Assembly: GCF_003334785.1 (NCBI RefSeq)
Contig: NZ_QOWV01000003.1
Reading direction: 5' to 3' (one strand)
DNA: 64,000 bases
DNA from: Escherichia coli
GTDB lineage: Bacteria > Pseudomonadota > Gammaproteobacteria > Enterobacterales > Enterobacteriaceae
The position numbers and the translations under genes are program-made. Of the stretch, positions 9,464-62,939 are shown in pieces. The notes under the pieces are model-generated. The model was not told the DNA's origin and searched no databases. It saw only the letters and a program-made list of their open reading frames with translations. The first letter of the stretch is position 1. Each line of letters opens with the position of its first letter.

Positions 9464-10807
9464 TTACGCGACGCTTTCTTCTTTATCTTTAGCGTCAGGC
9501 AGTTTTGGCGAAAGGGCGGTGGCCTTGCTGTCGATCCGGGTCACCAGCAGCTGGTCGATGCGGTAGTTATCGATATCCACCACTTCAAATTTGTAGCCGG
9601 CGAATTTCACCGAATCGGTGCGTTTCGGGATCTTACGCAGCATAAACATCATAAAGCCGCCGATGGTTTCGTAGTTGCCCGACTGCGGGAACTCGTCAAT
9701 ATCCAGCACGCGCATGACGTCGTCAATTGGGGTGCCGCCGTCAATCAGCCATGAGTTCTCATCACGGGCGACAATCTGCTCTTCCAGCCCCTGACCGACT
9801 AGATCGCCCATCAGCGTGGTCATCACGTCATTGAGGGTGATGATCCCCACCACCAGCGCGTACTCGTTCATGATCACCGCGAAGTCTTCACCTGCGGTTT
9901 TAAAACTTTCCAACGCCTCTGAAAGGGTTAACGTATCCGGCACAATCAGCGTGTTGCGAATTTGTACGCCGCTGTTCAGTGCCAGGCTTTGGTTAGCCAG
10001 CACGCGGTTCAGCAGGTCTTTAGAATCGACATAGCCGATGATGTGGTCAATATCTTCATTACAGACGAGGAACTTAGAGTGCGGATGTTCCGCCACCTTA
10101 TTCTTCAGGCTTTGCTCATCTTCGTGGAGATCAAACCAAATCACGTTTTCACGCGGTGTCATTGACGACGGAACGGTACGGGATTCCAGCTCAAAGACGT
10201 TTTCAATCAGCTCGTGTTCCTGTTTACGTAACACGCCCGCCAGCGCACCGGCTTCCACTACCGCGTAGATGTCATCAGAAGTGATGTCATCTTTACGTAC
10301 CATTGGCAGTTTGAAAATACGGAAGATTATGTTCGCCAGTCCGTTGAAGAACCACACCAGCGGGGTGCAAACGTACAGGCAGAAGCGCATCGGGTTGATG
10401 ATACGCAAAGCGACAGCTTCTGGCGCAATCATACCGATGCGTTTCGGGGTTAAATCCGCAAACAGGATAAACATGCCAGTCACTAACGAGAAAGAGAGAA
10501 TAAAGCTCAGTTGCTCAGAGAGCTCTGCCGACATATAGCGGGAGAACAGGCTGTGAAAAGCTGGAGAAAATGCCGCATCACCGACGATACCGCCGAGAAT
10601 CGCCACTGCGTTCAGACCGATTTGGACCACGGTAAAGAACATGCCGGGATTTTCCTGCATATTCAGAACGCGTTGGGCATTTATATTGCCTTCATCAGCC
10701 AGCAGTTTAAGTTTGATTTTGCGTGAGGCGGCAAGTGAGATCTCGGACATCGAGAAGAACGCACTTACAGCGATCAAGCAGAGTATGACTAAAATACTGT
10801 TTAACAT
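9464..10807 (-). CDS. ytfL: CNNM/TlyC-family inner membrane protein with CBS pair and CorC-HlyC domain (polyamine exporter PaeA in K-12)
   Basis: 447 aa; N-terminal transmembrane region then CBS/CorC-like C-terminus; synteny. Confidence 0.9.
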   Translation of the reverse strand: MLNSILVILCLIAVSAFFSMSEISLAASRKIKLKLLADEGNINAQRVLNMQENPGMFFTVVQIGLNAVAILGGIVGDAAFSPAFHSLFSRYMSAELSEQLSFILSFSLVTGMFILFADLTPKRIGMIAPEAVALRIINPMRFCLYVCTPLVWFFNGLANIIFRIFKLPMVRKDDITSDDIYAVVEAGALAGVLRKQEHELIENVFELESRTVPSSMTPRENVIWFDLHEDEQSLKNKVAEHPHSKFLVCNEDIDHIIGYVDSKDLLNRVLANQSLALNSGVQIRNTLIVPDTLTLSEALESFKTAGEDFAVIMNEYALVVGIITLNDVMTTLMGDLVGQGLEEQIVARDENSWLIDGGTPIDDVMRVLDIDEFPQSGNYETIGGFMMFMLRKIPKRTDSVKFAGYKFEVVDIDNYRIDQLLVTRIDSKATALSPKLPDAKDKEESVA

Positions 10808-20142: not shown

Positions 20143-21645
20143 ATGACGACTAACCAACACCAGGAGATCCTCCGCACCGAAGGATTAAGTAAATTTTTCC
20201 CCGGCGTCAAAGCGTTAGACAACGTTGATTTCAGCCTGCGCCGCGGCGAAATCATGGCGCTGCTCGGTGAAAACGGGGCAGGAAAATCAACGCTAATCAA
20301 AGCATTAACTGGTGTATACCACGCCGATCGCGGCACCATCTGGCTGGAAGGCCAGGCTATCTCACCGAAAAATACCGCCCATGCACAACAACTCGGTATC
20401 GGCACCGTCTATCAGGAAGTAAACCTGCTACCCAATATGTCGGTCGCTGATAATCTATTTATAGGCCGCGAACCCAAACGCTTCGGCCTTCTACGCCGCA
20501 AAGAGATGGAAAAGCGCGCCACCGAACTGATGGCATCTTACGGTTTCTCCCTCGACGTGCGCGAACCGCTCAACCGCTTTTCAGTCGCGATGCAGCAAAT
20601 CGTCGCTATTTGCCGGGCTATCGATCTCTCTGCCAAAGTGCTGATCCTCGATGAACCCACCGCCAGTCTCGACACCCAGGAAGTGGAGTTACTGTTTGAC
20701 CTGATGCGTCAGTTGCGCGATCGCGGCGTCAGCCTGATTTTTGTCACTCACTTTCTCGATCAGGTCTATCAGGTCAGCGATCGGATCACCGTCTTACGCA
20801 ACGGCAGTTTCGTAGGCTGTCGGGAAACGTGCGAGCTACCGCAGATCGAACTGGTAAAAATGATGCTGGGGCGCGAGCTGGATACCCACGCGCTACAGCG
20901 TGCCGGGCGAACATTGTTGAGCGACAAACCCGTTGCCGCGTTCAAAAATTACGGCAAAAAAGGAACGATCGCACCGTTTGATCTCGAAGTACGCCCCGGC
21001 GAGATCGTCGGTCTGGCTGGATTGCTGGGATCAGGACGTACCGAAACCGCCGAAGTGATCTTCGGTATCAAACCTGCTGACAGCGGCACGGCGTTGATCA
21101 AAGGCAAACCGCAAAACCTGCGATCGCCACATCAGGCTTCGGTACTGGGCATTGGCTTCTGCCCGGAAGACAGGAAAACCGATGGCATCATCGCTGCCGC
21201 CTCGGTGCGGGAAAATATCATCCTCGCTCTCCAGGCCCAGCGCGGCTGGCTACGTCCCATTTCCCGCAAAGAACAGCAAGAGATTGCCGAACGCTTTATC
21301 CGCCAGCTTGGCATTCGCACACCTTCAACTGAACAACCGATTGAATTTCTCTCTGGCGGCAATCAGCAAAAAGTGTTGCTTTCACGTTGGCTACTGACCC
21401 GACCGCAATTTCTGATCCTTGATGAGCCAACTCGCGGCATTGATGTTGGTGCCCACGCCGAGATCATCCGCCTGATTGAAACGCTATGCGCCGATGGTCT
21501 GGCGCTGCTGGTGATCTCCTCCGAACTGGAAGAACTGGTGGGCTATGCCGACCGGGTGATCATCATGCGCGATCGCAAACAGGTGGCGGAGATCCCGCTG
21601 GCAGAGCTTTCCGTTCCGGCGATCATGAACGCCATTGCGGCGTAA
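20143..21645 (+). CDS. ytfR: ABC transporter ATP-binding protein with duplicated ATPase domains
   Basis: 500 aa; two Walker A motifs (GENGAGKST, GLLGSGRTE) and two LSGG-type signatures. Confidence 0.93.
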   Translation: MTTNQHQEILRTEGLSKFFPGVKALDNVDFSLRRGEIMALLGENGAGKSTLIKALTGVYHADRGTIWLEGQAISPKNTAHAQQLGIGTVYQEVNLLPNMSVADNLFIGREPKRFGLLRRKEMEKRATELMASYGFSLDVREPLNRFSVAMQQIVAICRAIDLSAKVLILDEPTASLDTQEVELLFDLMRQLRDRGVSLIFVTHFLDQVYQVSDRITVLRNGSFVGCRETCELPQIELVKMMLGRELDTHALQRAGRTLLSDKPVAAFKNYGKKGTIAPFDLEVRPGEIVGLAGLLGSGRTETAEVIFGIKPADSGTALIKGKPQNLRSPHQASVLGIGFCPEDRKTDGIIAAASVRENIILALQAQRGWLRPISRKEQQEIAERFIRQLGIRTPSTEQPIEFLSGGNQQKVLLSRWLLTRPQFLILDEPTRGIDVGAHAEIIRLIETLCADGLALLVISSELEELVGYADRVIIMRDRKQVAEIPLAELSVPAIMNAIAA

Positions 21646-59173: not shown

Positions 59174-60193
59174 TCAGAAGTCGGCTTTCAGGACCACGCG
59201 GTAGCGCGCTTTACCATCGCGTACATGCTGGATGGCGTCGTTAATTTTCGACATCGGGAACAGTTCGGTGGTCGGCGCAACCTTGCTGCGGGCGGCAAAA
59301 CGCATCAGCTTACGCAGCTCATAAGGCGTGCCGGTAGCAGAACCAGAGATGCTGCGGTCGCCCGCAATTAACGTAAAGGCCGGAACAGACAGCGGCGTGA
59401 GAACCGCACCGACCGTATGGAAATTACCGCCATAGGTCAGCGCCTCAAAATAAGGCTGCCAGTCGAGGCTGACGTTCACAGTATTGATAATGAGATCAAA
59501 CTGCCCCGACAGGGCTTTCAGTGCCTGCGGATCGCGGCTATTCACCACTTTATCGGTACCCATCGCCAGTACTTCCTGCTCTTTCGCCGGATTAGAACTA
59601 AAGGCCGTCACCTCGCATCCCATTGCGTGCAGAAGTTTTATAGCGATATGCCCCAGCCCGCCAATACCAATTACCCCAACGCGGCTGGTAGCAGTGATAT
59701 GGTGCATCAACAGTGGTTTAAAGACCGTGATACCGCCGCACAACAGCGGCCCGGCGGACTCGATATCAATATTTTCTGGCAGTGGAATCACCCATTGCCA
59801 GTCCGCACGCAACTTCTCGGCAAAGCCACCGCGATTCATAATCGTCGGCACCGCACCTTGCTCGCAGTTGATCTGATTACCGCTAATACAGGTGTCGCAG
59901 TGACCACAGCTACGCGCCGTCCAGCCAATCCCGACACGCTGACCGACCTGCAAACCTTTATCCTGCGCGGCGCTCCCGAGTGCCACCACGCGCCCAATCA
60001 CCTCATGCCCGGCAACCAGCGGATATTGTGAAAATCCCCATTCGTTATCGATCATCGACAGATCGGAATGACAAATCCCGCAGTAATCCACCTGCACTTC
60101 AACATCTTGTGGCTTCAGCTCACCGGGATCGTACTCATAAACTTCCAGTTCGCCGCCCGCTTCTTTTGCGGCATAGCTTTTTATCATCGACAT
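59174..60193 (-). CDS. ahr: Zn-dependent NADPH aldehyde reductase (Ahr/YjgB)
   Basis: 339 aa from the ATG at 60193 ([26 protein letters not shown]...); MDR alcohol dehydrogenase motifs ([14 protein letters not shown]). Confidence 0.9.
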
Positions 60194-60388
60194 TTTTGGG
60201 TCCTTCTCTGGTGTTGTTTGGGAAGTGTAGAGCATGGCAGGGCGGGGTGCCTGGAGTGTGACAAAGGTTACATATCGCTGAGTGTAATGCTGAAAATTTC
60301 AGCACTTAGCGAGGTGGGTGCAAGCTGGCGCTTGCATGGTGGCGTGCGACAGGTATAATCCACAACGTTTTCCGCATACCTCTTCAGT

Positions 60389-60473
60389 GCCGAAGTGGCG
60401 AAATCGGTAGACGCAGTTGATTCAAAATCAACCGTAGAAATACGTGCCGGTTCGAGTCCGGCCTTCGGCACCA
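60389..60473 (+). tRNA. leuX: tRNA-Leu (anticodon CAA)
   Basis: 85-nt sequence gccgaagtggcg...ttcaaaa...ggttcgagtccggccttcggcacca with long variable arm, CAA anticodon loop and 3' CCA. Confidence 0.9.
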
Positions 60474-60563
60474 AGTCTTATCTAAGTCGTTGTTTTAAAA
60501 CAATTTAATCCATAATTTTGCTTGAAATCGCGTAGCCCCTCTTACAAAAGGGTATACGAGGCG

Positions 60564-62474
60564 ATGTCTCAGCGATATAAACTCTATCGTCGAACCAGCG
60601 GCATTTATGTTGTCCGCATTAGCATTCCCCAACGTTTTCGTCGATACGCAGGACAGTGTGAGATTCACACTTCAACAGGCACTCACGATCTTCATGAAGC
60701 AAAGCAGAAGTCCGCGCTCCTGTTGGCGGTCTGGTATCAGACCTTACAAGAGTATGAACAATTGGATTATCGAACTTTAAGTGACTGCGCCCCGCTGCTT
60801 GCTGGTGAGGGTATGATCTCGCTTTCTAACTTTGCTCAGTCAGTTGAGTTGCCTGTTGCGCAATTAATACAGGCGGTGATGAACCGTAATCTGCCCGTAT
60901 TCTGGCTGGCGACGGGGCAGGCTGGCTTTTATGTTGCAGCGCTCTCTGAGGCTGAGCTAGACCCGCTTGATGGCAGTTACGTTCTTAATTATGGCGAAGA
61001 GAAGGGTATCGAGGGGGTTGCTAAAGGCTATCTGCAACTCACTGCGCAACCAGCACATTTACGTAACATTATTAGCGACGGTTATTCAGAAGCTTCGGTG
61101 TTCAAAACTGCCGGAAGCGACGCTAAAGGCGGTTGGTTTTTCACCTCCGGTTGGCCGGTAATTAAACCCGATACGCTTTTGATCAATAAAGTCCATGCAG
61201 AAAGCCTAAGGCTTGATTGGCTGGCTAAGACCACGCCTCCAGTCGCTAGTGTTCATCCTACCGTGCCTCTTGCCGCTCCTGCCCCTACTATCGATAACGA
61301 GTATGTTAATCGAAAGTATTACACTAAGAATCTGTCGTGGTTATGCTCTGAATATCTAAAGCATCGGCGCAAGGGCAAGGTATCGGAGTCGGCTATAAGT
61401 GATATCCGTAACTATTTCAGCTTTATGATCGAAGCGATGGGTGACATTCAGTTGGAAGATTTTGATCGCGATTTCCTCCGGGCTTATGAGAGCAAACTGC
61501 GCACGATCCCAGCAAACCGTAATTTAGTCAAAGCTAAATATGGAGTGAAAACGCTGGATCAGTTAATCGCCAAAGCGGCAGAATGCGGCGATAAATTGAT
61601 GACTGAGGAATCCGTTAGGAAGTATATCAACGGCATTTATGGTGCAATGAAGTGGGCTGTTGCTGACGGTAAGCTACTGAAATCGCCATGCGAAAACTTT
61701 TTTCCATCCGATGATAAAGATGAGCGAGATCAGGATCACACTGACATATTTGAACCGCATGAAATTAAAGCGATTTTTTCGTTACCGTGGTTTGAGGCTG
61801 GAACTGTTGAACGCAATGCGCAAGGGCGATTCCATCAATATTGCCCGTTTAACTATTGGGCACCTTTGCTGGGCTTGATGACGGGGGCGCGAGTTAATGA
61901 AATCGCTCAGTTACTGCTGAGTGATGTTCTGGCAGACGACGGCGTCTATTATTTGAACCTTGAAAGCGATAATGAAAGCGGAAAGAAACTCAAAAATGCT
62001 AATGCTCGCCGCAAGATTCCGCTCCATTCAAAGCTGATTAGTCTCGGTTTCATCGACTACGTGAACGCCTTAAAAGATGCAGGGTATACCCGTCTCTTCC
62101 CGGAGCTTAAACCACATAAAACAAAAGGCTATGGTAGGCCAGTTTCCGCATGGTTCAATGAATCGTTGCTTGCGGGGCGGTTGAAACTCGAGAGGAACAG
62201 AAGCAAATCTTTCCATTCTTTTCGCCACTCAGTTTCGACTTTGCTCAAGGAGAAGGGCGTTAGCTCAGAATTACGAGCGCAGCTACTTGGGCATGTGCGC
62301 GGCGAAACTGAAACGGAAGTGCGATATAGCAAAGACCTCAAACCAATTCATATGATTGAAGTCGTGGAGAAAATTGATTTTTCGTTACCTGATATAGCGG
62401 AATTCAACATTCCTGACGGGCTGGATGCTGTCAGAGATGCGTTGCGAAGAAAGCGTGGCAAACAAACAGGTTGA
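60564..62474 (+). CDS. large tyrosine-type site-specific recombinase/integrase (~636 aa)
   Basis: ATG at 60564 with acgagg RBS; C-terminal catalytic motifs TGARVNE (Arg), HSFRHSVSTLL (HxxR), LLGHVRGETETEVRYSK (His, Tyr); long N-terminal and central extensions. Confidence 0.85.
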   Translation: MSQRYKLYRRTSGIYVVRISIPQRFRRYAGQCEIHTSTGTHDLHEAKQKSALLLAVWYQTLQEYEQLDYRTLSDCAPLLAGEGMISLSNFAQSVELPVAQLIQAVMNRNLPVFWLATGQAGFYVAALSEAELDPLDGSYVLNYGEEKGIEGVAKGYLQLTAQPAHLRNIISDGYSEASVFKTAGSDAKGGWFFTSGWPVIKPDTLLINKVHAESLRLDWLAKTTPPVASVHPTVPLAAPAPTIDNEYVNRKYYTKNLSWLCSEYLKHRRKGKVSESAISDIRNYFSFMIEAMGDIQLEDFDRDFLRAYESKLRTIPANRNLVKAKYGVKTLDQLIAKAAECGDKLMTEESVRKYINGIYGAMKWAVADGKLLKSPCENFFPSDDKDERDQDHTDIFEPHEIKAIFSLPWFEAGTVERNAQGRFHQYCPFNYWAPLLGLMTGARVNEIAQLLLSDVLADDGVYYLNLESDNESGKKLKNANARRKIPLHSKLISLGFIDYVNALKDAGYTRLFPELKPHKTKGYGRPVSAWFNESLLAGRLKLERNRSKSFHSFRHSVSTLLKEKGVSSELRAQLLGHVRGETETEVRYSKDLKPIHMIEVVEKIDFSLPDIAEFNIPDGLDAVRDALRRKRGKQTG

Positions 62475-62606
62475 ATCAGTTACTATTCAGTTGAGTGATG
62501 CTTGAATGCGCTGGGACGCTTCCTGGCGCATTTTTTATTAAGGGTGGTGGATTTCATAGTGCTGAATTTGGAGACGCTCAAAACACGTTTGGTGAAACTT
62601 GATGAC

Positions 62607-62939
62607 CTACGATTGCACCCGCAGCCCTTCTACGCTTTCTGATGGTAGATTTATCACTGTTTTAATGCTGGCCTCTATGTTGCCAATGATGTCTTCGCGC
62701 GGGCCGCTGCGCCAGTCATCGCTTGCGTAAAAAGCGTCGAGAACCGTAGTCATGCTTTTAGGGCTGACAAAGGCGCGAATCAGGTAATAGCAGTCCGGGT
62801 CATGCAGAGAGTTACCAAACGAAACAACATCGATCCCGTGGCGTTGGTGTAGGGGAACACTGATTTCCTGCATAATGGCGTGAAAAGCGGCACCGCTGCC
62901 TTTGCGTAAGGTGTATTGCAGTATCTCGACGGTTCTCAA
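62607..62939 (-). CDS. hypothetical small protein, possibly NIPSNAP-like (dimeric alpha+beta barrel); TTG start
   Basis: 110 aa ORF convergent with the integrase; ggag RBS 8 nt before TTG; pattern VEILQYTLRKGSGAAF...HGIDVVSFGNSLHDPDCYYLIRAF...FYASDDW judged by eye only. Confidence 0.35.
   Translation of the reverse strand: MRTVEILQYTLRKGSGAAFHAIMQEISVPLHQRHGIDVVSFGNSLHDPDCYYLIRAFVSPKSMTTVLDAFYASDDWRSGPREDIIGNIEASIKTVINLPSESVEGLRVQS

Follow-up and report, generated by a model that had tools for sequence, protein, structure and literature searches.

A 110-residue protein encoded beside the leuX integrase of Escherichia coli is best explained as a diverged NIPSNAP protein within the dimeric alpha+beta-barrel superfamily. 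On this explanation the protein would be a dimer that binds a small ligand or acts on it in an enzyme-like manner, and its gene would be a fixed backbone gene of the genomic island in which it lies. We give the explanation as a whole a probability of about 0.6. The identity of the protein is already known to the databases, as its RefSeq name attests. What is new here is the recognition of a NIPSNAP gene as a backbone gene of a family of defence islands, together with two conserved non-coding blocks. The stretch of DNA analysed, called the window below, comprises 64,000 nucleotides of an E. coli contig (NZ_QOWV01000003.1).

The gene and the leuX island

The gene lies near the end of the window, in the company of a tRNA gene, an integrase gene and several non-coding elements:

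60389..60473, plus strand: tRNA-Leu(CAA), leuX (ARAGORN; Rfam tRNA, 59 bits)
60449-60473, plus strand: left direct repeat (attL core), formed by the final 25 nt of leuX and recognised by its recurrence in Nissle 1917
60564..62474, plus strand: 636-aa tyrosine integrase of the DUF6538 + Phage_integrase type (RefSeq 'site-specific integrase', WP_000083138.1)
62504..62533, plus strand: hairpin with T-run, the intrinsic terminator of the integrase, between the convergent genes (terminator scan, 13 pairs)
62534..62606, minus strand: conserved non-coding stretch of 63-75 nt directly 3' of the NIPSNAP stop codon (column identity)
62607..62939, minus strand: coding sequence of the 110-aa NIPSNAP-like protein, TTG start and TAG stop, equal to RefSeq WP_001261095.1 (ORF list, dN/dS, AF2, PDB fold matches)
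62947..62951, minus strand: Shine-Dalgarno sequence GGAGA, 7-8 nt 5' of the TTG; GGAG itself occupies 62951-62948, 8 nt before the TTG
62940..63175, minus strand: conserved 5' flank of ~230 bp, which moves together with the gene and is presumed to hold its promoter and leader (blastn)
~63945-64000, minus strand: 3' end of a DUF1643 gene in the cargo slot beside the NIPSNAP gene; the DUF1643 gene carries a frameshift in Nissle 1917 but is intact in O157:H7

The earlier note, made from the letters of this DNA, had described an ORF of about 110 aa at 62607-62939 that starts on TTG behind a GGAG ribosome-binding site and converges with the integrase, and both the ORF list and a reading of the sequence agree with that description. 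On the minus strand the sequence leading into the start codon is GGAGATAATGCT-TTG, and a reading of the interval between the in-frame TGA on the 5' side (63026-63024) and this TTG found no alternative in-frame ATG, GTG or TTG. An intact ORF of 106-110 codons was present in 16/16 orthologous loci, with no frameshifts or stops; these are the window and 15 loci from other E. coli strains, Klebsiella, Pectobacterium, Yersinia, Raoultella, Kosakonia, Enterobacter, Phytobacter, Pluralibacter and Pseudocitrobacter, and the start and length of the ORF are conserved across at least 10 genera. The GGAGA is kept in all 15 enterobacterial loci set against the window. It is followed by TTG in 15 of the 16, and the remaining one, from Kosakonia cowanii, has an ATG at the identical codon, which fixes the start site of the ORF. 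Column identity at codon positions 1, 2 and 3 is 0.92, 0.94 and 0.76, and the median pairwise dN/dS is 0.18 (116 pairs from the 16 loci). These comparisons show that the ORF is a real gene under purifying selection. It almost certainly encodes a protein of NIPSNAP fold. The conservation of a weak TTG start suggests selection for low translation.

The gene is found in 647 of 5426 complete E. coli genomes, with at least 80% query coverage in 642 of the 647, and the leuX-type integrase is found in 602 E. coli genomes. The coding sequence was annotated 'NIPSNAP family protein' in 29 of 30 sampled E. coli rows. The segment 60300-64000 is 100% identical in many complete E. coli genomes, including Nissle 1917 and ATCC 25922, in which the identical protein carries the same RefSeq accession and the name 'NIPSNAP family protein'. 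A single plasmid record carries the gene, and none of 50,697 phage records gave a match; the gene is typically neither phage- nor plasmid-borne. Two IMG/VR contigs (L026 and L027) hold an N-terminally truncated match that covers residues 30-110 at 73% identity, and L027 additionally carries the island HTH gene, a resolvase and a glyU-type integrase. Both are probably islands that were swept into prophage calls, not phage genes.

The integrase starts 90 nt after leuX, and the NIPSNAP ORF converges with it across a spacer of 132 bp. The integrase matches PHROG 1, integrase, at E = 3e-32, and its Klebsiella homolog carries PF20172 and PF00589. For the start of the integrase, RefSeq and the Klebsiella alignment favour ATG 60564 (636 aa) over the TTG 60522 (650 aa) of the mechanical ORF list. 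In Nissle 1917, whose locus (L001) is 100% identical, the 25-nt leuX repeat occurs again 7.3 kb downstream, the two copies lying at 20150-20174 and 27464-27488 of L001. The right copy is the equivalent of window positions 67763-67787, beyond the window end, and the window stops inside the island. In order, the Nissle island contains the integrase, NIPSNAP, a frameshifted DUF1643 gene, a 186-aa serine recombinase, a 281-aa protein, a 164-aa membrane protein and a 154-aa XRE-type HTH protein, and no phage or conjugation (transfer) genes appear in the island gene list. Past the right repeat of the Nissle locus lie further remnants, namely AbiJ-NTD4 and fragments of IS30 and IS3, and then fecIRABCDE. 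With an adjacent tyrosine integrase, 25-bp repeats and variable defence cargo, the leuX locus is an integrase-only tRNA island. A contig labelled 'MAG: Collinsella sp.' (L009, JAIJJM010000048.1) matches the E. coli leuX island at 99-100% identity, leuX, integrase, NIPSNAP, resolvase and HTH included; most probably it comes from E. coli and was mis-binned into an actinobacterial MAG.

Passages of Hochhauser et al. 2023 (PMC10121019) and of a review (PMC12707154) describe leuX as hotspot #37, the defence hotspot that is occupied most often in E. coli, and note leuX islands that have integrase genes, lack other mobility genes and are mobilised in an unclear manner. The present island resembles those published islands in its tRNA-adjacent tyrosine integrase, in its lack of phage and conjugation genes, and in its type of variable defence cargo, of which Gabija is one example. 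Neither a conserved backbone nor a NIPSNAP gene is described in these passages of PMC10121019 and PMC12707154, whereas both are defined here at three tRNA sites and in many genera. A literature search on NIPSNAP in connection with islands or integrases, and on DUF6538, found nothing relevant.

The slots of these islands hold Gabija (GajA + GajB) in E. coli UTI89, AbiLi + AbiLii in Klebsiella, a retron-type RT in Pectobacterium, a PDC-S60-like protein in Nissle, and DUF1643, DUF4160 and IS1203 in O157:H7. The NIPSNAP gene directly flanks the slot that carries Gabija, AbiL or DUF1643, the cargo genes mostly read towards it, and at hotspot #37 it sits on islands that carry defence genes. This arrangement favours the view that the protein itself takes part in the defence function of the island, as a sensor, regulator or anti-defence factor acting with the system in the neighbouring slot. 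We nevertheless consider such a role unlikely. A scan of the protein against PADLOC-DB 2.0 matched 0 families at E<=1, and the neighbouring systems vary by locus and are known to function on their own, which disfavours a specific partner. Moreover, homologs at 40-54% identity occur in ordinary chromosomal neighbourhoods without defence genes.

Fold and proposed activity of the protein

Direct scans of the 110-aa protein gave no match in Pfam (even at E<=10), NCBIfam or PHROGs, and phmmer against PDB sequences returned chance matches alone (E>=0.23, xylose isomerase), so that a profile search was needed. Because a direct Pfam match is absent, the NIPSNAP assignment rests on remote homology and fold. 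The Pfam search that the earlier note had proposed was thus negative when run directly and positive through remote homologs: scanned singly, 51 of 74 matched PF07978 at E<=1e-3 (best 6.6e-11) and 66 did so at E<=0.1. Clustered at 90% identity, the homologs form 358 clusters, mostly from Enterobacterales, 79-99% identical and named NIPSNAP by NCBI/UniRef. Among representatives of 50%-identity clusters, 461 matched at E<=1e-3 and 213 at E<=1e-10. Searched against the PDB, the family profile matched 1vqs (9.6e-6), 2ap6 (1.1e-5; Atu4242), 5ixu (1.4e-3) and 5k9f (5e-3; 'NIPSNAP domain protein'), and 5kak was matched as well.

In the alignment of 74 members (A1), W76 and I88 are invariant, and E5, L11, G14, P29, G42, R55, F70, Y71, S73, G79, P80 and R81 are near-invariant. 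The consensus motif is AFYxSxxWRxGPRE. The window's protein has every one of the invariant and near-invariant residues, and the family reaches distant phyla at 37-54% identity with the invariant residues kept. An AF2 model built with this alignment reached a pLDDT of 97.3 and a pTM of 0.88. It predicts a ferredoxin-like domain of ~100 residues in the order beta-alpha-beta-beta-alpha-beta, with the elements E2-11, H16-33, E37-43, E50-57, H60-72 (and short H74-77 and H81-87), E88-98 and H100-109. In a Foldseek search of the PDB, ranks 1-15 were all NIPSNAP structures (1vqy, 5kak, 5k9f, 5ixu, 1vqs and 2ap6; TM 0.78-0.82, rmsd ~2 A), and 49 of the 50 top matches in AFDB50 bear the name NIPSNAP.

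By eye, the earlier note had guessed at an alpha/beta barrel of NIPSNAP/ABM type, and this guess has held: the RefSeq name, the PF07978 matches, the family profile, the structure prediction that the note had itself suggested and the Foldseek ranking, with NIPSNAP TM scores above those of ABM structures, all agree with it. It had also named a lack of homologs or of a fold match, or disruption of the ORF in close relatives, as grounds for giving the guess up; homologs exist, the fold finds its matches, and the ORF is intact in relatives.

Within the same superfamily, the protein might instead be a monooxygenase or isomerase of the generic ABM type that needs no cofactor (PF03992-like, as are LsrG and ActVA-Orf6) and not of NIPSNAP type. 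Such enzymes share its topology, LsrG and several putative monooxygenases appear in the fold search from rank 16 onward, and weak ABM matches were obtained for 11/74 homologs at E<=0.1 (best 2.4e-3). At E<=1e-3, however, 0 of the 74 homologs matched ABM, as against the 51 that matched NIPSNAP, and the query itself had no ABM match. The TM scores of the ABM structures are also lower, at 0.55-0.68, than those of the NIPSNAP structures. An enzyme of the generic ABM type is accordingly quite unlikely.

As a divergent NIPSNAP protein, the window's protein has the fold order and the single domain of ~100 residues in common with the solved bacterial members, namely Atu5224 (1VQY) and Atu4242 (1VQS/2AP6) of Agrobacterium and 5K9F, 5IXU and 5KAK of Burkholderia xenovorans. 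The profile alignment to 1vqs ends at a common Trp, which is W76 in the window's protein. Identity to the solved structures is only 12-21%, and the protein differs from them in having its own subfamily motif, FYxSxxWRxGPRE, and in being island-borne in Enterobacterales. Eukaryotic NIPSNAP1/2 are mitochondrial proteins with tandem NIPSNAP domains that serve as a mitophagy signal. They share the family name with the window's protein, and their tandem layout is also seen in the bacterial homologs P0124 and P0126. No parallel in function follows from this.

We propose that the 110-residue protein is soluble, consists of a single ferredoxin-like domain and most likely forms a homodimer. Dimerisation is expected from the superfamily and is supported indirectly here. 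The homologs P0124 (222 aa) and P0126 (245 aa) are natural tandem fusions of two copies, which counts in favour of a dimer, and a linked two-copy AF2 model reached a pTM of 0.85. However, this model superposes poorly on tandem ABM chains (whole-chain TM 0.39-0.56) and is no guide to the geometry of a dimer. By analogy with the superfamily, each subunit may bind, and perhaps convert, a small ligand in a pocket between the sheet and the helices. This pocket would be marked by the near-invariant residues E5, R55, F70, Y71, S73, W76 and G79-P80-R81, several of which make up the FYxSxxWRxGPRE motif. We put the chances of a ligand-binding or enzymatic accessory role at about even, and the role would be independent of integration. 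The literature search found no function for bacterial NIPSNAP proteins. The contexts of homologs at 46-54% identity showed no common neighbour, and these unrelated neighbourhoods therefore give no hint of a pathway. Alternatively, the very tight linkage of the gene to one island end could point to an island-specific role.

A common backbone at three tRNA sites

Islands of 7-11 kb with the same gene order are found at leuX, thrW and glyU. They consist of an integrase, NIPSNAP, a slot, a small serine recombinase (resolvase), a second slot, the 164-aa membrane protein and the XRE-type HTH protein. The tRNA-Thr(CGT) site (thrW, downstream of proBA) is occupied in Klebsiella and in E. coli UTI89, where the island is bounded by two tRNA-Thr copies ~10.6 kb apart. 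The tRNA-Gly(CCC) site (glyU) is occupied in Kosakonia, Enterobacter, Pluralibacter and others. Amino acid identity to the genes of the window's island is as follows:

HTH protein: 87-93%
serine recombinase: 83-92%
NIPSNAP: 83-93%
integrase at leuX sites: 79-100%
integrase at thrW sites: ~46%
integrase at glyU sites: ~36%

Integrase modules thus seem to have been swapped on a shared backbone. To judge from ~20 loci, the NIPSNAP gene is very probably a fixed gene of this backbone that flanks a cargo slot, and not itself cargo. Here the earlier note, which had called the ORF the only candidate cargo gene inside the window, needs to be corrected in both respects: NIPSNAP is among the most conserved backbone genes of the island, with the true cargo in the variable slots beside it, and the 3' end of the DUF1643 pseudogene also enters the window at ~63945.

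Some individual loci deserve mention. At L002, L013, L018, L020, L024 and L025 the backbone (HTH, membrane protein, resolvase and NIPSNAP) is 83-93% identical while the identity of the integrase follows the tRNA gene occupied. A contig assigned to 'Martelella alba' (L019) carries a glyU island of enterobacterial type. Just 3' of the NIPSNAP terminator at L007, L011, L016 and L018, and at 10476-10673 of L014, there are short stretches similar to the 3' end of a thrW-type integrase gene, evidently remnants. In the loci with such remnants an intact integrase lies 3-6 kb off, behind IS elements or other genes. The thrW-type remnants beside NIPSNAP suggest that cargo was gained in events that truncated an earlier copy of the integrase.

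The constant place of the gene at the integrase end could be explained if the protein were an accessory of the integrase, acting in directionality or excision or regulating int. The gene is convergent with and adjacent to integrases of three diverged clades at three tRNA sites, and the sequence between the two genes includes a strongly conserved stretch, as such a role would have it. The evidence of fold and of descent nevertheless makes it very unlikely. An alpha+beta barrel is not the winged-helix or HTH fold of an excisionase, and NIPSNAP remains ~85% identical while the integrases drop to 36-46%, although a partner would be expected to diverge together with its integrase. No integrase was found between NIPSNAP and the tRNA gene at L017, L012 and L015, and the NIPSNAP gene is intact at each of them; at L017 (Kosakonia oryziphila, 10001-10512) it lies ~115 bp from tRNA-Gly(CCC). 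In several loci, cargo or IS elements put 1-6 kb between NIPSNAP and int.

Conserved non-coding sequence and implications

The 5' flank of the NIPSNAP gene is conserved along with the gene. By blastn it is 77-88% identical over 62940/62961-63162/63177 at L007, L011, L016, L018 and L020, and column identity in its first 130 nt is 0.72-0.73. A scan for sigma-70 promoters over 62400-64000 found nothing, a result that counts against our preferred explanation. In that explanation the gene has its own conserved 5' region, is translated from a weak, conserved TTG and ends at a hairpin common to it and the convergent integrase. The stem of this hairpin is kept elsewhere through differing sequences, with changes on both sides in 2/14 pairs.

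The stretch directly 3' of the stop codon is strongly conserved. Its column identity is 0.86-0.92 (9 loci), compared with 0.79 at codon position 3, and it is 98% identical between E. coli and Klebsiella, between which the NIPSNAP gene has a dS of 0.60. RNAalifold found no structure in it except the terminator hairpin. In a search of 60000-64000 at E<=1, Rfam reported the tRNA alone and nothing on either this stretch or 63275-63416. A small ORF of 24-32 aa within the 3' stretch was considered and rejected, as its ATG is lost in L011 and L014. The stretch also contains, on the minus strand, a putative weak promoter picked by hand (-35 TTGAGC, 17 nt, -10 TATGAA), which would possibly read antisense into the integrase.

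A second conserved non-coding block of ~142 nt lies at 63275-63416. It lacks a long ORF and recurs at 77-92% identity in 9 loci, on islands at all three tRNA sites, and is sometimes detached from the NIPSNAP 5' region. No coding signal was detected in it, and RNAalifold gave no covariation.

That the segment is conserved mainly as DNA, for instance as a homology arm for cargo exchange or as a regulatory region in which the ORF is incidental, is scarcely credible and largely refuted by the substitution pattern: the non-coding flanks are indeed as conserved as the gene or more so, and the module is common to islands with unrelated cargo and diverged integrases, but third codon positions vary most, with the low dN/dS and uninterrupted frame already described, the family extends to distant phyla with its invariant residues, and the AF2 model is of high confidence.

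The view of the ORF itself changes little, as it was already annotated and has a well-known fold. For the islands, a backbone of NIPSNAP, resolvase, membrane protein and HTH protein is common to small leuX, thrW and glyU islands that swap integrases and defence cargo. The NIPSNAP gene offers a simple marker for finding such islands, and the gene and the two non-coding blocks are concrete targets for deletion. A further idea, which is speculative and improbable, is that NIPSNAP, its conserved 5' region and the 3' stretch together form the functional core module of this unnamed family of integrase-only defence islands. Such a module could be, for example, a ligand-sensing switch or a source of antisense transcripts that controls integrase expression, excision or the expression of cargo. 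If this is true, a bacterial NIPSNAP protein would have a function for the first time, and there would be a way into the question of how integrase-only islands move.
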